Of a DNA stretch of 64,000 nt, positions 3,780 to 27,883 are shown piece after piece. The notes under the pieces were generated by a model. It worked only from the letters and a program-made list of their open reading frames with translations, ran no database searches and was not told the DNA's origin. The stretch is from Oscillospiraceae bacterium (GTDB lineage Bacteria; Bacillota; Clostridia; Oscillospirales; JAKOTC01). Where the stretch lies: positions 4,703 to 68,702 of the forward strand of contig DAOPZJ010000002.1 of NCBI GenBank assembly GCA_035353335.1, read 5' to 3'. Position numbers and translations under genes: made by a program. Each line of letters begins with the position of its first letter. Position 1 is the first letter of the stretch.

Positions 3780-4004
3780 ATGACCGGTCAAAAATTCGAT
3801 AAAGATGCCTGTATAGCCCTCTTGCGCGAAAAACAACAGTCGCTTTCCGAAAAGAGGCTTAAGCGTTATCCTCAGCGCGGTGATTTTTCAGTCGAAGAAA
3901 TTGTTGCAATCAAAGCGTATTTCGGCCCATGGCCGCGGGCGCTCGAAGCTGCCGGTTTAAAACCGCCGCGCCCAATTGACCCAAAGCGGAAAGCAAGACG
4001 ATAA
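3780..4004 (+). CDS. Small protein resembling a single homing-endonuclease-associated (HNH_repeat-like) repeat
   Basis: 74 aa. Good RBS (AGAGGAAAGGAAA) upstream. The pattern ...YP.RGDFS.EEI..IKAYFGPWPRALEAAGL matches, from memory, the repeat that ends FGSW..AL..AGL. No nuclease domain is present. Confidence 0.5.
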   Translation: MTGQKFDKDACIALLREKQQSLSEKRLKRYPQRGDFSVEEIVAIKAYFGPWPRALEAAGLKPPRPIDPKRKARR

Positions 4005-4050
4005 CATTTTGCTTGAATAGAAATGAAAAACAAAATGCGGCCAATCTAGC

Positions 4051-4092
4051 AAAAACCGGGCGTCACGACATCGGACGCCCGGTTTATTTTTT
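4051..4092. terminator. Bidirectional Rho-independent terminator between convergent small genes
   Basis: AAACCGGGCGTC / GACGCCCGGTTT 12-bp stem, flanked by an A-run on the left and TTTATTTTTT on the right. Confidence 0.7.
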
Positions 4093-4112
4093 AAAAAGGT
4101 ATACAATAGACT

Positions 4113-4358
4113 TCAAGAGATGGTTGCCAACAAATCCTCCGTAATTTCCTGCATTTGGCACAAGTCCACCTGATTGCTGTTCATTAAATCGACCAGTGTG
4201 TCTGCAGTTTCACGCGAAGTCGTAACGTCCCGGAGCATGCATATCCCACTCCGGAAACGCTCCCGCCCAATAATCGCATAACCCTCATGCGATCCCGCCT
4301 GGCAGTCCGTGTACTTTTCGCAAGCTGTTTTGTACTGAAATTTGCCGAAACTCAACAT
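4113..4358 (-). CDS. Hypothetical 81-aa protein (candidate ECF-sigma regulon member)
   Basis: ORF with ATG start and no recognisable domain. It is preceded at ~120 nt by promoter-like motif copy 1, which is shared with the sigma and anti-sigma genes. Confidence 0.55.
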   Translation of the reverse strand: MLSFGKFQYKTACEKYTDCQAGSHEGYAIIGRERFRSGICMLRDVTTSRETADTLVDLMNSNQVDLCQMQEITEDLLATIS

Positions 4359-4480
4359 GACTTTTTTGCTCCATTCGAAATTTTGTTTTGTTTTTTAGTG
4401 AATGCACGGTGAAACCCCGTTTCATCCGGTCATTTGCGGCTGCAGCCTGCACTGCTTAATATTGGGACCGGATACCATGG

Positions 4481-4527
4481 TTTTCCCCTCTGCATATATA
4501 AACAATCGAAAAGGCCGTTTTCTTACA
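4481..4527 (-). promoter_or_regulatory. Promoter-like motif copy 1 (putative ECF-type promoter)
   Basis: Minus-strand reading TGTAAGAAAACGGCCTTTTCGATTGTTTATATATGCAGAGGGGAAAA. Near-identical architecture to copies at 5160-5207 and 5817-5860. Confidence 0.4.
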
Positions 4528-4856
4528 TTTCAATAAAAAAATTGTTAAAAAATATTTCGACATATTTCGACAAATAGATGAAAAATATACCTTACGGCTT
4601 TAAATAGCCATATTTTAACTTTTATCAGAAAGAGATTTCCATTTATTTTACAGCAGGATTATCACTCTCATCCTTTTACTGATCTTCGACATGCGAATAG
4701 ATCAGATAAAAGGCGCGTTCTTCAACCGAAAATATAAGCAGTTTACGATTGAAAACTACTTCTCGACCGGCCTATTTAACCGTTTCGAGCTCATTTCCGA
4801 CGAAACCGCTTTCATAAATATATGGGTTTTTAATGATTTTATTTTTTCTTACGATA

Positions 4857-5126
4857 TCAAATTCCTTTGACCAGCGCGGCGCCTGCGGCCAGCGACATCA
4901 GAATAATAACCGCCACTGCGGCGACTCTGAATATTATGGCGGCGACATACCGACGGTGTTTTTTTACAAACCCCTCCGGATGGCGCAGCATCTGTTCTTT
5001 CCGTGTTAAATACCGTTTGCTGAACGAGACATTTTCACCTTCTGCTTTCTCAATGACACCCGCATAGTCAGAAAGCAGCGAGTCCGTCAGCGCCTCTTTC
5101 AGTACCGCATCCAATTGATCGCCCAT
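4857..5126 (-). CDS. Putative membrane-anchored anti-sigma factor (short, single TM)
   Basis: 89 aa, immediately downstream of the ECF sigma gene. Cytoplasmic N-terminal part, then basic stretch KKHRRY followed by TM segment VAAIIFRVAAVAVIILMSLAAGAALV. Confidence 0.6.
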   Translation of the reverse strand: MGDQLDAVLKEALTDSLLSDYAGVIEKAEGENVSFSKRYLTRKEQMLRHPEGFVKKHRRYVAAIIFRVAAVAVIILMSLAAGAALVKGI

Positions 5127-5159
5127 TTTTTAATCCTCCCAATCGGATTTTAAGGGAAC

Positions 5160-5207
5160 TTTTCCCCTTCACTATATAAAACAATTAAGAAGGCTGTTTT
5201 CTGACAC
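5160..5207 (-). promoter_or_regulatory. Promoter-like motif copy 2
   Basis: Minus-strand reading GTGTCAGAAAACAGCCTTCTTAATTGTTTTATATAGTGAAGGGGAAAA, 34 nt upstream of the anti-sigma-like start. Confidence 0.4.
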
Positions 5208-5218
5208 CTGATAAAAAT

Positions 5219-5803
5219 TTATTTGGAAATTTTCGTATTTTGGAGTTGATTTATATTTTCCTCTCTCATCAGTTTACGAATTAACATTTCTTTACCTCGC
5301 TTGATGCGGGTTCCGAGGATTTTTTCTTCGATATTGAGTTCCCGTTCGATCTCTTCATAACTCCACTCGCACACAATGCGCAGATATAAAACATCTTCAT
5401 ACACCGATGGCAATTCTCTTATTGACTCTTTCAGCCGTCGGTAATTGATCTCATTTTTAAAACCTTCAATCGTTCTGTCTGTTTCCGCCGCATACCAATC
5501 CTGTGGGTTAAAATACTCCACCTGGGATTCTCTTTTCGCGGTATTGAGCGAGATGTGTCTGACGACAACAATCAGCCAGGCCTTCAATTCCTCTTCGTTT
5601 TTTCGTTTCAGTTCCGAAAGATGCTCAATCGCTTTGACAAAAGCGTCCTGAACCGCTTCCTCCGCCTTTTCCTTAGAATGCAGAATCCGGTTTGCAATCA
5701 CAAGCATCAGTTTTTCGTTTTTTTCATAAATTTGCGCGAAAAACAACCGGTCATCTCCGTTGTCAGCCAAAGTCAATAATGTTATAAGCATGATTAACCC
5801 CAT
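5219..5803 (-). CDS. RNA polymerase sigma-70 family ECF-type sigma factor
   Basis: 194 aa. Region 2-like EEAVQDAFVKAIEHL...WLIVVVRHISLN and region 4-like LPSVYEDVLYLRIVCEWSYEEIERELNIEEKILGTRIKRGKEML. An alternative start at ATG 5791 is possible. Confidence 0.85.
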   Translation of the reverse strand: MGLIMLITLLTLADNGDDRLFFAQIYEKNEKLMLVIANRILHSKEKAEEAVQDAFVKAIEHLSELKRKNEEELKAWLIVVVRHISLNTAKRESQVEYFNPQDWYAAETDRTIEGFKNEINYRRLKESIRELPSVYEDVLYLRIVCEWSYEEIERELNIEEKILGTRIKRGKEMLIRKLMREENINQLQNTKISK

Positions 5804-5816
5804 TTACACCTTAATG

Positions 5817-5860
5817 CCTGTTCCCTCTGTATGATATCATAAGAAGGGCCGGTTATCAAG
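5817..5860 (-). promoter_or_regulatory. Promoter-like motif copy 3 (upstream of sigma gene, suggests autoregulation)
   Basis: Minus-strand reading CTTGATAACCGGCCCTTCTTATGATATCATACAGAGGGAACAGG. Shares GCC(C/T)TTCTTA, an A/T-rich -10-like block and an AGAGGG(G)AA tail with copies 1 and 2. Confidence 0.4.
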
Positions 5861-5873
5861 GCGGGTGATGCGG

Positions 5874-5908
5874 CGAAAAAGGGATATGCGGTAATCTCCG
5901 CATATCCC
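5874..5908 (-). terminator. Rho-independent terminator of the HTH-ARH gene
   Basis: Perfect 11-bp stem GGGATATGCGG / CCGCATATCCC (5881-5891, 5898-5908). On the minus strand it is followed by TTTTTCGCC. Confidence 0.7.
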
Positions 5909-5936
5909 TCATTCTCATTGATGATATTTATTTCAT

Positions 5937-7523
5937 TCAGCCTTTAATGTGTTTCATCGTCAATTCCGTCATCTCTTCAACCGAGACCGTTCCGACGCCG
6001 AAAATCGAAGTGTCCACTTTTTCGTTGAATACCGAGGTCCAGTGTTTCGGAATGCCCGCCGCGCCGATCGCCATGCCGACAATCGAGCCGACGGTCGCGC
6101 CGTTGCAGTCGGTGTCAAATCCGGTCTGTACCGCAAGGCAGATTGACTTCCCGAAATCAAGCCCCCCGAAAATCAAGGCGGAAACCACAATCAGCGCATT
6201 CGAAATCGTGTGACACCAGTGATATCCCGTACCCTCGTCATAGTTTTTATGAATCCACGCCATGCAGGTCTCGGCGTTCTCTCCGTTGTCGATCATAGCA
6301 AGCAGTTTTTGAATCTCGTCATAAAGCCGCGAGGTTATCGGAATCTGCCGCAGTCCCGCGTTGATGATCTTCCGAACGTCGCTTGTCACCGCCGCATCGG
6401 CAATCATCGCCGCGACGAACATCTCGCCGTAGATGCCGTTTTTCACATGCGAAATCGAGGCATCCCGCCACGCCATATCGGCGGCCTCGACCGGATCACC
6501 GGGGTTTATATAGCCGAAATAGTCGGCCCGAATCTGCGCGCCGATATATTCGCGGAACGGATTTTTAATAATCGCCGAAACCGGCGGATAAAAACCGTTT
6601 ACAAAGTTGACAAATGCCACCCGCTCGGCGGTGCAGTAGGCGTCCTTCGGCTGATTCGCGAGCCAGCATTTTGCCACGTCGATCGGTTGAAATTCCCGCC
6701 CGTATTTTTGGAGCAGCCGGGTCGCCGCCATCACGGTGTAATTGGTGTCGTCGTCGGACGGCGCATTCGGAATGGTCTTTGCATAACTGCGCTTTTTAAT
6801 CGGGAACGTATATTTCGTTGCAATCTCATCGGTGATCTCATCGGCCGTTATATAGCGATGCATCGGATAGTTCCCGGTCTCTTTGAGCAGCGGAATCAGT
6901 TCTTTTGTACGAATACCCTCAATGGGTTTCCCGAGCAAACAACCCGCAATTCTCCCAAGCCATGCGCCCTTGATTTTCTCTTTCAATGTTTTTATGTCAA
7001 CCGGAGCGGCTTTGTCCGAACTGCCCTCACATAATGCCTTGATACCTTCTAAATCGGACGGCTCGTTAAACTTGTAGCCCTCCTGCTTTTTGCAGCTCTT
7101 CAAAAGCCCGTATAAAATCTCGGCCATTTCCTCACGGGCTTTTCCGGGCGGCAGCAGGCTGATCTCGTTGGCGAGCTTTTTATAGGGTTCGATATCATAT
7201 CCCTCGTCCGCCATCTGCACACACTCGATGTGGATGTTGGCTGAATAGACCTCCCACCCGTGCATGTCGGCATAACTCGGTACAAATTCCCGATTAAAAC
7301 GCAGTTCCTCGTCATTATTAGCGGCGGTCTTGGCGCACACCAATCCGTCGAGCGTGACATTAAAATATTCGGCGATTGCGACAAGCTTGTCCAGTTCCGG
7401 TCTTGTCGTGTCCGATTCCCATTTTTGCACCGCCTGCCGCGAGACATGCAGAATGTCCGCCAGTTCCTCCTGCGTCAGTCCTGCTTTGGCGCGCAGCGCT
7501 GCGATTTTGCTTCCGATAGTCAT
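5937..7523 (-). CDS. XRE-HTH domain fused to ADP-ribosylglycohydrolase (DraG/ARH family) domain
   Basis: 528 aa. N-terminus is HTH_3 (LTQEELADILHVSRQAVQKWESDTTRPELDKLVAIAEYFNVTLDGLV). C-terminal ~340 aa carries ARH-family signatures (GAWLGRIAGCLLGKPIEG, SDDDTNYTV, GFDTDCNGATVGSIVG). RBS GGGAGG lies 9 nt upstream of the ATG. Confidence 0.85.
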   Translation of the reverse strand: MTIGSKIAALRAKAGLTQEELADILHVSRQAVQKWESDTTRPELDKLVAIAEYFNVTLDGLVCAKTAANNDEELRFNREFVPSYADMHGWEVYSANIHIECVQMADEGYDIEPYKKLANEISLLPPGKAREEMAEILYGLLKSCKKQEGYKFNEPSDLEGIKALCEGSSDKAAPVDIKTLKEKIKGAWLGRIAGCLLGKPIEGIRTKELIPLLKETGNYPMHRYITADEITDEIATKYTFPIKKRSYAKTIPNAPSDDDTNYTVMAATRLLQKYGREFQPIDVAKCWLANQPKDAYCTAERVAFVNFVNGFYPPVSAIIKNPFREYIGAQIRADYFGYINPGDPVEAADMAWRDASISHVKNGIYGEMFVAAMIADAAVTSDVRKIINAGLRQIPITSRLYDEIQKLLAMIDNGENAETCMAWIHKNYDEGTGYHWCHTISNALIVVSALIFGGLDFGKSICLAVQTGFDTDCNGATVGSIVGMAIGAAGIPKHWTSVFNEKVDTSIFGVGTVSVEEMTELTMKHIKG

Positions 7524-15160: not shown

Positions 15161-16273
15161 TTAATTCTCTTGTTCGACAGCCTTTACTCTTTTGTTCTTA
15201 TGAACTTTCGTTTTAATTTCCGCAATGACCCAAGTCACAAGGGGAAAGAGCACCTGAACCGGGAGAAAAATCCATCTGTAGACGTCGAACCATTCGTTCA
15301 GCTGCATGGCGTTTTTAAAAACGTTGATCGAAAGCATCAGCATCAACAGTCCGATTGGGGCAGCAAGCTGTCTTTCGGAATTGAGATTTAAAAGCTTCGC
15401 GGTCCCTCTCACGGCTCCCGCCAAGCACACCGCAATCTTGGCAATTCCGCAGATGATCAGATTTATGATGACGATTATTTCAATTCGCTCTAAATAGGAG
15501 GTCAATTGAATAATGCTGACGGCGCTGATTGATGCGCTGGTCAGAAGTTGAATGTTTTCCATGCCGAGAACCAGGATATTTCTCAACGTCGCAACCGCAA
15601 TTAAGAATGCCCCCAATATCAAGCCGATATAAAAAACTTTCAGCGTTTTTTTACGGAAATTCAGGGAATCAATCACCAAAAGGAACACGACGCTCTCTCC
15701 GAACGGCAGTGAATAATTATTAAACGCATTATCCGCTATTAAAAATGCGTCACTCTGCAAAACAGGTTTTAAGTTTTGAAAATCAAACAGATAAGCCGAA
15801 ACGACTACTGTCAGTGAGAAAATTGCAATAATGACCGGAAGCGCGAACAAACACCAGCGCCCGAAGGTCTCGACCCCGTTTCTCGTGATATAAATACAGG
15901 TGAGAATGATACAAATCGCAAACGCATATTGCGGCGTTTCCGGCAAAGATGTTATCTGAATGACCTCCGTGAAATGCCGCGTCACAAAAGCGCCGAGAGA
16001 GAATGCGTAAAAGATATAAGTTGCGAAAATGATGCTTCCCGCGACTTTCCCGAACAGTTCCCTGTTGATGTCCAGCAGGTTTTTCCCCGGGTAGAGGATC
16101 ATAATACGGCTATATATGAAAAAGGTAAACAACGCAAAAACCGTTGCGGCAAGATAGGAGAGCCAAAAGTCCTGATTGTCTCTCGCATGGGTGGCGTGAA
16201 TCAAAGCGCTGCCCAATTCGAACATGACCAGCATCGCAATCGCCTGTTTCGCCGTGATCACTTCTTTTCCCAA
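15161..16273 (-). CDS. Spore germinant receptor B subunit (GerAB/GerKB-type permease)
   Basis: 370 aa with ~10 TM segments and a TTG start. Last gene of an A-C-small-B operon with coupled stops and starts. Confidence 0.85.
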   Translation of the reverse strand: MGKEVITAKQAIAMLVMFELGSALIHATHARDNQDFWLSYLAATVFALFTFFIYSRIMILYPGKNLLDINRELFGKVAGSIIFATYIFYAFSLGAFVTRHFTEVIQITSLPETPQYAFAICIILTCIYITRNGVETFGRWCLFALPVIIAIFSLTVVVSAYLFDFQNLKPVLQSDAFLIADNAFNNYSLPFGESVVFLLVIDSLNFRKKTLKVFYIGLILGAFLIAVATLRNILVLGMENIQLLTSASISAVSIIQLTSYLERIEIIVIINLIICGIAKIAVCLAGAVRGTAKLLNLNSERQLAAPIGLLMLMLSINVFKNAMQLNEWFDVYRWIFLPVQVLFPLVTWVIAEIKTKVHKNKRVKAVEQEN

Positions 16274-16274
16274 C

Positions 16275-16502
16275 TCATTTCCCCCCTTTACCGGTTATGA
16301 AATCGTAAATGGTTTGAAACAAATCCGCATATCTGGGAAGCTCGACTTTGAAAATAATTAAAACTTGCAAAATGAAGGCAAGCGCAAAAAATCCGGTGCA
16401 GAAAAAAATCGCCTTCTTACTTTTCGAGCGATATACAGGCACCAAATCCGTAAATATCAACACCGCATACAACACAGTAAAAATCACAATTTCCTCGCCC
16501 AT
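16275..16502 (-). CDS. Small two/three-TM protein inside the ger operon (possible germinant receptor D-type subunit)
   Basis: 75 aa and hydrophobic. TAATG overlap with gerC and a 1-nt gap to the gerB start. Small D subunits in GR operons are known from Bacillus. Assignment here rests on position and size only. Confidence 0.5.
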   Translation of the reverse strand: MGEEIVIFTVLYAVLIFTDLVPVYRSKSKKAIFFCTGFFALAFILQVLIIFKVELPRYADLFQTIYDFITGKGGK

Positions 16503-17656
16503 TACTGTTGATCCTTTAAACTTTTTCCGGCCTGGGCGCTGTTCCTGATTTTGATTTTGCAGGTCACGCTGAACTGCAGATTCTTGAAACCGTTATCCCA
16601 ATCGTCTTTATATTGCTTCCAAATGTCGGGCTTTTCCGCATAAACCAGTTGCCCGAACCCGAAGATGTCGGTGTCGAATTCATTTTGCACCTTTTGAACG
16701 ACGCGGATGATGTTTTCTTGCAAAAACAGCTGCATGTCTTCCGTCAGAGCCGTCATACCCGCTATATCGGCGTAGCTTGCATTTGGCCCGCTTTCCCCGA
16801 TCGCCGCCTCGGTCTCGGTGCTGATACCAACGGCTAAAATGCCGTCACTGAAAACGGGTTTGACCGTGGTTTTGTTGTCGAACACCTCCAGGGTGATATC
16901 CGCAATTGGGTCGTTTTGATAATTGTAGTTGACCAACAAACCTCCCTTAACTTTATCGATGACATATAAAAAATATTTCGTATCCTCCGAATCCAAATAA
17001 CCCACGAGGATATCCCCTTTGAAAATCGCGGTCCCGCAGATATCCGCCGACTTCATCTCATCCTGCGGCTTCATTGTAACGCAGGGAGCAAAGGCGTAAG
17101 GGACCTCCGATTCAAGCATTTTTATGACTTTATATAATTGAACCCTTGTATATTTTTCAACATTGTCCGAATTATCGATTTTATCGTTGATTTCATAAGA
17201 CAAAATTTCGTTGACGATGCCTTTGGAAGTCATAATGTCTTTTACCGATGCATCCTTTGCGACCAGCAGATGTGTGGTCAGACGTATTTCGGCATCCCGG
17301 TAAAACCAGTCGAGCACATCAAGAAGCCCCTGCCTCGCCAGACCCTCACCAACAATGATGCATTGCGCGTGACTCCAAAACAGTCGTTTTCCGGAGACCT
17401 GAATCGTATTCCGAACCGCATCGAACACGGTTTTTCCTCTGGTCTCCACAATTTTGCCTTCCGGTGACGACTGGCCTTTCGAAGCCGAGCCGGACTCTAT
17501 AATCTCGATATATAAAACATAATCACCGGAGGCAGCGTCGCGGTCAACGCCGACCCCCGCAACGATGGAAAGCATATTGATTTCCCTGTAATTCCAACAA
17601 CCGGTCGTAACCAGGCAGAGAACAATCAACAAAAACAATACCGCCCGCTTTTTCAT
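16502..17656 (-). CDS. Spore germinant receptor C subunit (Ger(x)C lipoprotein)
   Basis: 384 aa. Lipobox LVTTGCWNYREIN followed by LSIVAGVGVD, typical of the GerAC family. Confidence 0.85.
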   Translation of the reverse strand: MKKRAVLFLLIVLCLVTTGCWNYREINMLSIVAGVGVDRDAASGDYVLYIEIIESGSASKGQSSPEGKIVETRGKTVFDAVRNTIQVSGKRLFWSHAQCIIVGEGLARQGLLDVLDWFYRDAEIRLTTHLLVAKDASVKDIMTSKGIVNEILSYEINDKIDNSDNVEKYTRVQLYKVIKMLESEVPYAFAPCVTMKPQDEMKSADICGTAIFKGDILVGYLDSEDTKYFLYVIDKVKGGLLVNYNYQNDPIADITLEVFDNKTTVKPVFSDGILAVGISTETEAAIGESGPNASYADIAGMTALTEDMQLFLQENIIRVVQKVQNEFDTDIFGFGQLVYAEKPDIWKQYKDDWDNGFKNLQFSVTCKIKIRNSAQAGKSLKDQQ

Positions 17657-19200
17657 GTGCGCTTATCCTCTTTTTTTTGTCTTTTCCTGTCATTCGCAAT
17701 CAATCTCGGGCGGTAATTCATCAGCCACCAGGGCATACGGATCATCGTATCTTTCAAGTCTCCCCTGTCGAAGGTCCTGATATAGGACATAAATGGGACG
17801 CCGAACGAATGAAGGCTGAACGCATGCACTAAAATTCCGGTAAACAAGAACAGAAAACCGTATAACCCCATAAGCGCAGAAATAATAATCAATAAAAGCC
17901 GTATGATGATAATCGTGTTGATCATTTTGGGCAACATCAAACTGGTGATGCCGGCGAACGCGACAATGATCACAATGGGCGCGCTGATGAATTTTGCGTC
18001 GACGGCCGCCTGTCCCAATACGAGAGCCCCCACAATTGAAAAGGCTTGGCCGATTGTCGAAGGCATCCGCGTTCCGGCCTCGCGAATAACATCGAATATG
18101 ATGATGAGCCCGAGCAGCTCAATGACGCTCGGGAACGGAACCCCTTGCCTAGCCGAATAAATACTTGTGAGCAGAGTTGTCGGAATCAGCTCTTGGTGAA
18201 AAGTGATTAAACTGAGATAAATAGCGGGTAGACAGGTTGTGATGAACAAAGCGATAATACGCAGAATCCGATTAAATGAAGAGGCCTGAAACTGCAGGTA
18301 GTAATCCTCGTTTGTCTGTATGTTTTCTATAAATAAGCAGGGCAGCGTAAGGACCACGGGAGTTCCGTCAACAATCACGGCATACCTGCCCTCCAGCAGT
18401 TTGCCCGCGACGGTATCCGGCCTCTCGGTCCGATAAATGGTATTGAATATAGATAACGGCGCGTCAGTGATAAATTCCCTGATGTATTCCGAATCCAATA
18501 TACCGTCTATATCGATGGTATCGAGACGTTTTTCCAATTCCGTTAAGATCGATTCCTGCGCGATGCCCTTGATATAACAAATACAGACCTTCGTGCGGGT
18601 TCTCGCGCCGACCGTACGAAATTTAAATTTCAAATCGTTTATCTGGATTTTTCTGCGCACCATGGCGACATTTTGCATAATAGCTTCGGTAAATCCCTCT
18701 TTGGGGCCGAGGAACACTTTTTCCAAATCCGGTTCCGCGATGCTTCTCGACGGCCATCCTTTGGTATTGATGATCATTGCGCGCTTGTAACCGTCGACAA
18801 ATAAAAGCGTATCGCCGTAAAGAATTGCCTCAAGCATTTTATTGATATCTTCCGAGGCGGTGACATCGTTTGACTGAACCACCTGCTCGGATAATGTTTT
18901 GAACAAATCCCCTTCTTTTTTATCTTCATAAGCAGTAACCGGCCTGATGATATTTTCATTGATGATGCTCACGTTGATCATGCCGTCCATGGACATCAGG
19001 CAGCAGCAGATATCGGGGTTGTTTCTGTTTTCGAATTTTCTAACGATAAAGGTATCGTCATTTGCAAAAAGCTTTTGAAAGAGCTCGATATTATCTTCAA
19101 GTTTATCGGACAAACCGCCTTCGATCAACTTCTCCGCGTTTTCAGTTATTTTTGTCCCCGGATTTTTATCGTTTTTGTGCAGCCATTTATCCAAAAACAA
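17653..19200 (-). CDS. Spore germinant receptor A subunit (GerAA/GerKA family)
   Basis: GerA-family soluble N-terminal domain plus 5-6 TM C-terminal region. Start reassigned to TTG 19200, which lies 7 nt after GGAGGTG. The ORF-track start 19293 lacks an RBS. Confidence 0.85.
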   Translation of the reverse strand: MFLDKWLHKNDKNPGTKITENAEKLIEGGLSDKLEDNIELFQKLFANDDTFIVRKFENRNNPDICCCLMSMDGMINVSIINENIIRPVTAYEDKKEGDLFKTLSEQVVQSNDVTASEDINKMLEAILYGDTLLFVDGYKRAMIINTKGWPSRSIAEPDLEKVFLGPKEGFTEAIMQNVAMVRRKIQINDLKFKFRTVGARTRTKVCICYIKGIAQESILTELEKRLDTIDIDGILDSEYIREFITDAPLSIFNTIYRTERPDTVAGKLLEGRYAVIVDGTPVVLTLPCLFIENIQTNEDYYLQFQASSFNRILRIIALFITTCLPAIYLSLITFHQELIPTTLLTSIYSARQGVPFPSVIELLGLIIIFDVIREAGTRMPSTIGQAFSIVGALVLGQAAVDAKFISAPIVIIVAFAGITSLMLPKMINTIIIIRLLLIIISALMGLYGFLFLFTGILVHAFSLHSFGVPFMSYIRTFDRGDLKDTMIRMPWWLMNYRPRLIANDRKRQKKEDKRT

Positions 19201-19225
19201 GGTTTCACCTCCGCATGTTTTGCCA

Positions 19226-19255
19226 TAGTTTTTGTTGTTGAACGTCGAAATATGC
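19226..19255 (-). promoter_or_regulatory. Possible forespore (sigma-G/F-like) promoter of the ger operon
   Basis: Minus strand reads GCATA (19255-19251), 18-nt spacer, AAAACTA (19232-19226). This only partly matches the GNATR-N18-CATNNTA consensus, which I recalled from memory. Confidence 0.3.
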
Positions 19256-19382
19256 AAACGCATGCCCGACAGAGCGGATGGAAACCGTCTCAATGATGTT
19301 CGTCTTGACCGGCAGTCTTTCTCTTGACACCGAATCGGCCGTTTGGTACAATAATCGTAACAATCGCGATATTGGGGAAACT

Positions 19383-27688: not shown

Positions 27689-27883
27689 CCTGTCCCTTTC
27701 TTCGCTATGTATTTCTTTTCGAACAATTTCACATACTTTTTTGTTCGAAATCTCGCGTGGTTTCCGCGCCGCGCCCCCGCTGCAGGCACGAGCTCGTCCA
27801 CTGAATAAAGGGTATCACATTGCGATTATCGAAACATGTCGAAAGGTGAAGGAAAAAATAAAATCTTTAAAGATATTGAGTAT

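Follow-up and report, generated by a model that had tools for sequence, protein, structure and literature searches.

A conserved promoter-like element and tandem Spo0A boxes point to a possible three-unit ECF sigma factor module in an Oscillospiraceae genome

We analyzed a 64,000-nt stretch of DNA from an Oscillospiraceae bacterium (contig DAOPZJ010000002.1, positions 4,703 to 68,702; hereafter the window, whose own numbering is used below), the minus strand of which carries, in this order, genes for an extracytoplasmic function (ECF) type sigma factor, an 89-aa protein with a single transmembrane (TM) segment and an 81-aa protein of the DUF6514 family. An earlier note on this DNA had proposed that three copies of one promoter-like motif, at 4527-4481, 5207-5160 and 5860-5817, precede these genes and define a regulon of the sigma factor. 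The gene order was borne out by the open reading frames (ORFs) and domain matches, and all three strings were found on the minus strand where they had been placed. Two of them, upstream of the 81-aa gene (M1) and of the 89-aa gene (M2), are genuine and conserved copies of one element, but the one upstream of the sigma gene (M3) is not a copy and resembles a sigma-A-type promoter. The arrangement that we favor, to which we give an even chance, is an ECF module of three transcription units in which sigma-A would drive the sigma gene, the shared motif would drive the anti-sigma-like and the DUF6514 genes, and Spo0A would provide a second input.

M1 (AATGTAAGAAAACGGCCTTTTCGATTGTTTATATA; 4495-4529, −) and M2 (GGTGTCAGAAAACAGCCTTCTTAATTGTTTTATATA; 5173-5208, −) represent a single element of ~35 nt, TGTnAgAAAAy-N11-rATTGTTT(T)ATATA. 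Their local alignment scores 47, compared with 14.7 ± 2.5 for shuffled sequences, none of which reached 47 in 500 trials. The pattern GAAAAC-N15-18-TATATA occurs exactly twice in the 64 kb (0.02 expected), and a degenerate 24-nt core retrieves only M1 and M2 from the window even when 3 mismatches are allowed. The best-conserved columns, TGTnAnAAA and TTGTTT, form two blocks that start 22 nt apart, a spacing roughly compatible with the geometry of a −35/−10 pair. Most copies have AAAAC in the upstream block, others AAAT or AATT; the TTGTTT block is followed by (T)ATATA and, a few bases on, by a G-rich stretch. Neither a promoter scan nor inspection found a usable sigma-A −35 or −10 in M1 or M2, and by eye the motif bears no convincing likeness to the CodY, cre or LytTR consensus sequences.

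Nine lineages of the locus were recovered, seven with the sigma gene (the window, L001, L004 with L005, L006 and L022, L007 with L008, L011, L023/L030, and L025/L026) and two without the sigma/anti-sigma pair at the locus (L009 with L010 and L018, L009 and L018 being the same contig, and L024); the source databases label the related loci as metagenome-assembled genomes (MAGs) of Oscillospiraceae. A position matrix built from 13 motif instances, all taken from lineages other than that of the window, scored M1 at 44.3 bits and M2 at 37.4 bits, and the third-best site of the window at 6.1 bits. M1 precedes the DUF6514 gene in all nine lineages. M2 precedes the anti-sigma-like gene in six of the seven sigma-bearing ones (the window, L001, L004, L007, L023/L030 and L025), the missing case being L011, where the sigma and anti-sigma-like genes overlap. 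Both copies keep their places even though the sigma proteins of these lineages share only 51-83% identity. In L025, and also in L026, an operon (4504-6926 in L025) is inserted between the anti-sigma and DUF6514 genes; the L025 operon is preceded by a third copy of the motif, CGTAATAAAACAGCTCACCTGTTTGTTTATTAAC, and consists of genes for a protein of 94 aa, a LytTR response regulator and a HATPase_c_5 histidine kinase.

The likeness of M1 and M2 spans ~60 nt, including flanks beyond the expected sigma contacts, as might be seen if they were copies of a dispersed repeat or relics of a local duplication with no common regulatory role. The motif is, however, not scattered over many unrelated sites, a distribution that the earlier note had named as a sign of a repeat: no further copy exists in the 64 kb. 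When 185,579 species genomes, a collection that excludes the window's own genome, were scanned with the strict pattern, only 10 matches were obtained, of which two look real, both upstream of homologous genes, and the remaining eight, in coding sequence or in unrelated contexts, resemble chance matches. Both copies are also conserved in position while the flanking non-coding DNA has diverged, and we regard a repeat or relic as scarcely credible.

The segment upstream of the sigma gene is of a different kind. M3 (5860-5817, −) scored −18.3 bits with the motif matrix, and its weak alignments to M1 and M2 were equaled by 13 and 55 of 500 shuffles, respectively. It reads TTGATA-17-TATCAT with a TG before the −10 (5831-5859, −), matches TTGACA-17-TATAAT at 10 of 12 positions and is among the two best sigma-70-type matches in the scanned region; all seven sigma-bearing lineages have TTGA(A/T)A-17-TAnnAT with TG upstream of the sigma gene, and their spacers are unrelated. 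The model in which one ECF promoter occurs three times, once at the sigma gene for autoregulation, could draw on the GCC(C)TTCTTA in the spacer and the ACAGAGGG after the −10 that M3 shares with M1 and M2 in the window, and on the fact that ECF sigma factors usually autoregulate (PMC7826278). Nevertheless, GCCCTTCTTA, common to M3 and M2 here, is absent from the other lineages, and because the six other lineages keep only the sigma-A hexamers and the TG, the spacer likeness of M3 to M1 and M2 is best taken as a coincidence of this genome. Taken together, the matrix score, the near-consensus extended sigma-A promoter and the comparative spacers rule M3 out as a third motif copy and make the three-copy model highly improbable. 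The proposed autoregulation was accordingly not borne out, since what precedes the sigma gene is a housekeeping-type promoter, conserved among the lineages, and there is no sign that this gene is regulated through the motif. The further proposal that the sigma and anti-sigma genes are separately promoted does hold insofar as each has its own promoter-like element, of the sigma-A type in one case and M2 in the other.

Upstream of M1 lies a tandem pair of perfect Spo0A boxes, TGTCGAA-ata-TGTCGAA (4556-4572, −), spaced 10 bp start to start, with 45 nt from the start of the pair to the TGT of M1. In both B. subtilis and C. difficile, Spo0A recognizes TGTCGAA as the core of its binding site (PMC3485338). 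All nine lineages have the tandem pair; its distance from M1 is 45-46 nt, or 35 nt in L025, where the same helical face is kept because the difference is 10 bp. No such pair precedes M2. When the window is compared with L009, the boxes are identical at 18 of 20 positions and M1 at 31 of 33, while fourfold-degenerate sites agree at only 0.48-0.63 and the A/T-rich 26-nt linker between the boxes and M1 at 17 of 26. Since the boxes and M1 are kept while the fourfold-degenerate sites and the linker diverge, both are under selection. By core and phasing the tandem boxes are textbook Spo0A sites, and binding of Spo0A to them is predicted.

TGTCGAA is about twice as frequent in the window as in shuffled sequence, with 24 occurrences compared with 12.9 ± 3.4 in dinucleotide-preserving shuffles, none of 100 of which reached 24. 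One isolated perfect box lies ~115 nt upstream of the tandem pair (4685-4691, −). A second, near-perfect tandem pair, TATCGAAacaTGTCGAA (27827-27843, +), is found in the intergenic region 27689-27883, in opposite orientation and ~140 nt upstream of an 84-aa gene without a Pfam match (27688-27434, −), and a gene for an HD-domain protein lies on its other side. No spo0A gene is present in the 64-kb window.

Several observations weigh against the three-unit module, and the link between the sigma factor and the motif is its weak point. L009 and L024 keep the boxes and M1 (30-31 of 33 positions, with fourfold-degenerate sites at 0.22-0.63) without the sigma/anti-sigma pair, and the profile search for sigma orthologues gave none from the L009 assembly, which is a MAG and possibly incomplete. 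A 31-bit M-like site in a Lachnospiraceae MAG (L021, JAAWBG010000029.1; 6136-6163, −) precedes a 241-aa DUF4367 gene; it has no adjacent sigma gene, and no orthologue of the window sigma was detected there. The downstream block of the motif, TTGTTT/ATATA, lacks the CGT-type −10 usual for ECF promoters, and the autoregulation usual for ECF sigma factors is apparently missing from this one. The 89-aa protein matches no anti-sigma family and has no solved homologue. Finally, we know of no precedent for Spo0A acting at an ECF-type promoter. For L009, L024 and L021, either related ECF factors encoded elsewhere would share the promoter specificity or another factor would read the motif.

In L021, downstream of the DUF4367 gene come a gene for a protein of 143 aa and an ORF of 69 aa; divergently transcribed genes encode a GntR regulator and an ABC transporter, and a candidate transposase-like gene was noted nearby by eye. 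A possible second motif copy in L021 was rejected as it scored 1.4 bits only. No motif was found at L027, which has the nearest non-orthologous sigma with a DUF4367 partner (27% identity).

The same observations bear on an alternative that we find doubtful but not far-fetched, namely that a factor encoded elsewhere, rather than the adjacent sigma, reads M1 and M2. In every locus whose contig reaches that far, a gene for a fusion of HTH_3 with an ADP-ribosylglycohydrolase (528 aa; 5937-7523, − in the window) is found upstream of the module, with the DUF6514 gene on the downstream side; in L009 and L024 the order is glycohydrolase gene, 0A boxes with M1, and DUF6514 gene. The synteny of the XRE-type helix-turn-helix (HTH)/glycohydrolase gene thus holds even without the sigma gene, and the sigma/anti-sigma pair could be an optional insertion between the glycohydrolase and DUF6514 genes. 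Candidates for this factor would be a different alternative sigma, a DNA-binding protein that activates or represses, and the syntenic HTH/ADP-ribosylglycohydrolase protein. The purifying selection on the boxes and M1 in L009 and L024 and the solitary site of L021 favor such a factor, as does the glycohydrolase protein, which is 86-90% identical across lineages and far outstrips the sigma (50-83%) in conservation. Also in its favor, part of the spacer between the two blocks is conserved and includes a short inverted repeat, AAAC...GTTT, but this repeat is 4-5 bp only. Against it, six of the seven sigma-bearing lineages have M2 directly in front of the anti-sigma gene, and the third copy would drive the operon inserted inside the module in L025. 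By eye, the motif is unlike the consensus sequences for sigma-H, D, E, F, G, K, B and 54. XRE-type regulators usually autoregulate, but no M-like site is seen upstream of the glycohydrolase gene, nothing elsewhere in the window exceeding 6.1 bits.

If the three-unit module is correct, the sigma gene would be transcribed from its own sigma-A-type promoter with read-through into the anti-sigma gene; no terminator-like site was found between the sigma stop codon and M2. The sigma protein would presumably be held at the membrane by the tail-anchored 89-aa protein, and once free it would fire at M2, producing more of the anti-sigma protein as a negative feedback on top of the read-through, and at M1, expressing the monocistronic DUF6514 gene as the output. 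Phosphorylated Spo0A (Spo0A~P), bound at the phased boxes, would add a stationary-phase or sporulation input at M1; because the boxes, at about −70 to −85 from the presumed start site, precede M1, the output is probably coupled to Spo0A~P. A stronger version, which we hold to be unlikely, is that M1 is an ECF-holoenzyme promoter directly co-controlled by Spo0A~P at the two phased boxes (about −70 and −80), with the sigma wired for negative feedback only and the anti-sigma ectodomain lost in this genome. It would mean, and this we regard as equally speculative, that a sigma factor responding to an envelope signal and the master regulator of sporulation jointly switch on a small protein with conserved Cys and His residues.

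The sigma gene (5219-5803, −) encodes a protein with an ECF (group 4) make-up, in which PF04542 (Sigma70_r2) and PF08281 (Sigma70_r4_2), i.e. regions 2 and 4, are the only domains; its length agrees with the ~170-200 aa typical of the group. It scored 62.1 bits with the generic ECF model TIGR02937 (cutoff 42.9), no specific equivalog model was passed, and the closest solved structure is that of B. subtilis SigW (E = 4e-7). The clade of its orthologues is sharply bounded: the members score >300 bits at 50-99% identity, and all the rest are at ≤76 bits and ~30% identity or lower. The ORF encodes 194 aa from the ATG at 5803 and 190 aa from a second ATG at 5791 (MLITLL...), which is probably the true start because all orthologues begin at its equivalent.

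The 89-aa protein (4857-5126, −) has its only hydrophobic segment at the C-terminus and would be tail-anchored. Its label as an anti-sigma protein is presumptive, resting on its topology and on the position of its gene, which adjoins the sigma gene and overlaps it in L011 and L027. Two forms of the protein exist. The long form of 224-234 aa carries a C-terminal DUF4367 ectodomain and is found in L004 (4650-5342), L007 (4723-5394), L023/L030 (1091-1792 in L030) and the distant L027; the short form of 85-91 aa ends 3-4 residues past the TM segment and is found in the window, L001, L011 and L025. With the N-terminal 85 residues of the L004 and L007 DUF4367 proteins, the 89-aa protein shares 50-53% identity. 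A preprint in which DUF4367 is mentioned deals with the LolA-like protein GerS. Between the 89-aa and 81-aa genes are ~500 nt without a convincing ORF, and tblastn, blastn and tblastx searches found no DUF4367 remnant or coding sequence in the gap 4575-4857, which shares with L001 only a 23-nt hairpin and whose 59-aa plus-strand ORF matches no family. RsiW-type proteins undergo site-2 proteolysis. One might speculate by analogy that a form with almost no ectodomain is a constitutive protease substrate, and the feedback through M2 would then be functionally important.

The 81-aa protein (4113-4358, −) is a marginal member of DUF6514 (PF20124), with 24.1 bits against a gathering cutoff of 23.9; the L009 orthologue scores 29.7 bits, and the part of the family model matched by the protein and its orthologues is the C-terminal half. 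Identity among the orthologues is 65-86%; H24, C67 and the HEGY.IIGR.RF block are invariant, C19 is nearly so, and in L004 the 81-aa protein is better conserved than the sigma (80% vs 58%). A profile search of 1.84 billion representatives gave 28 relatives, the small ones of which are DUF6514 members scoring up to 51 bits, and a metagenome scan with the DUF6514 alignment gave 3 loci only. In L028, a distant member of the family, the promoter is of an ordinary sigma-A-like kind, and neither the motif nor 0A boxes were found. No literature on the DUF6514 family was found. The AlphaFold2 model shows three strands followed by two helices at low confidence (mean predicted local distance difference test score, pLDDT, 65) and has no fold match in the PDB with E below 3. 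That this gene is the output of the module, as had been suggested, is plausible.

The leader of the DUF6514 gene (~136 nt; 4359-4494, −) contains the hairpins that the earlier note had described, ATCCGGTC...GACCGGAT with GCTGCAGC, and TGAAAC-GGG-GTTTCA, but they are neither unusually stable nor conserved and belong to no Rfam family. The 9-bp stem ATCCGGTC/GACCGGAT is present in both the minimum-energy and the centroid folds, and relatives with long leaders have a conserved upstream ORF and an 8-bp hairpin with a compensatory change, from which one could argue that the leader is a structured regulatory RNA, a riboswitch or an attenuator, in this organism as well. On the other hand, the 139-nt leader folds at −34.2 kcal/mol, no better than shuffles (−29.5 ± 3.4; z = −1.39), 20 of 200 of which were at least as stable, and no T-run follows the hairpins. 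Searches with Rfam 15 gave no match in the window at the gathering threshold and none overlapping the leader in 4050-5950 even at E = 5; nothing relevant was found in L023 either. The orthologue leaders are of two unrelated types, of ~130 nt (L009, L011, L024) and 315-390 nt (L001, L004, L023, L025), and the short ones are unrelated in sequence; the leader of the window aligns with L001 at both ends only. Because the upstream-ORF region is missing and the ends alone align, the window leader appears to be a deletion derivative of the long leaders and not a dedicated riboregulator, and a regulatory RNA here is very unlikely.

The long leaders encode a conserved upstream ORF of 16-19 aa behind AGGAGG (MKKHLNRLIFMNDRPCL, MKRTKRRIFFNDLPCL and MRRKNMNERWIFFNGRLCF), located at 5637-5690 in L004, 1599-1649 in L023 and ~7217-7276 in L025. 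The peptide has a basic N-terminus followed by ...RIFFND.PCL, and the stop codon lies in the loop of the 8-bp hairpin, which shows one compensatory and three one-sided changes. Ahead of it is a conserved 5′-proximal hairpin, GGGUA/UACCU. In L001 the upstream ORF has degenerated, its ATG changed to ATA, and in the window it has been deleted.

At the upstream end of the module, a terminator-like hairpin of the HTH/ADP-ribosylglycohydrolase gene (5880-5909, −; 12-bp stem followed by TTTTT) is predicted to separate the sigma gene from upstream transcription, and an equivalent precedes the sigma promoter in related loci. At the downstream end, the DUF6514 gene is followed by an intrinsic-terminator-like hairpin with perfect 12-bp arms and TTTTT (4053-4085, −). 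Convergent with this gene is a 74-aa ORF (3780-4004, +) that matches HNH_repeat (PF18780, associated with homing endonucleases) at 29.2 bits. Genes for an endospore germination permease (Ger(x)B) and a Ger(x)C lipoprotein lie at 15161-17656, and since these spore germination genes are present, the window organism is likely to be an endospore former. They are part of a spore germination receptor operon (15161-19293, −), in which an upstream 546-aa ORF is a candidate GerA-type subunit.

If the three-unit module is true, it would reveal the target promoter and a minimal regulon of an ECF clade of sporulating Oscillospiraceae that stands sharply apart; besides the anti-sigma and DUF6514 genes, this regulon would include a LytTR two-component operon in one lineage. 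It would be a natural ECF module without positive autoregulation, with feedback through the anti-sigma only, whose sister lineages offer sensor-bearing (DUF4367) and sensor-less variants of the anti-sigma. It would also give a first functional handle on DUF6514, tied to Spo0A and the onset of sporulation, and possibly a first case of Spo0A acting at a promoter dependent on neither sigma-A nor sigma-H. For specialists this would be no major surprise, but a compact and testable system.

Compared with known systems, the module is similar to canonical ECF pairs of Firmicutes such as SigW-RsiW of B. subtilis in that the sigma consists of regions 2 and 4 only and is adjacent to a single-pass membrane protein, and in its A-rich upstream block with AAC in most copies, the ~17-nt distance between hexamers and a small predicted local regulon. 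It differs from them in that the motif is found in front of the anti-sigma gene and not of the sigma gene, whose promoter is of the sigma-A type; in its downstream block, ATTGTTT(T)ATATA instead of CGTA or CGTC; in the sigma itself, at most ~30% identical to anything outside its own small clade; and in the anti-sigma, whose N-terminal domain belongs to no known family and which has no ectodomain in this genome. The lack of a target motif upstream of the ECF gene is shared with non-autoregulated groups such as ECF32 and ECF203, and groups of this type are controlled by other transcription factors or have no anti-sigma (Casas-Pastor et al. 2021, PMC7826278). Unlike them, our module has an anti-sigma-like gene, and it is this gene that carries the motif.

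Among 0A-box promoters, those of abrB, spoIIA, spoIIE and spoIIG and of C. difficile spo0A and sigH resemble M1 in having perfect TGTCGAA cores, in a tandem direct repeat with 10-bp spacing, ahead of the core promoter. No Spo0A-activated promoter is known to use a sigma factor other than sigma-A or sigma-H; the M1 core matches neither, and its boxes do not overlap the −35. The A/T-rich −10-like GTTTATA is also reminiscent of the GTTATA of the group 5 sigmas TcdR, BotR, TetR and UviA, which are of similar size (~180-190 aa). The TcdR group has an SRQ motif in region 4.2 and a −35 TTTACA (PMC4031146), whereas the upstream block of our motif is TGTAAG/TGTAAT and the window sigma has no SRQ, reading ...EEKILGTRIKRGKEML... 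instead; for want of both SRQ and TTTACA, the sigma does not fit this group. Finally, unlike the other members of DUF6514 (PF20124), the window clade has its own invariant HEGYAIIGRERF block together with the conserved Cys and His residues.

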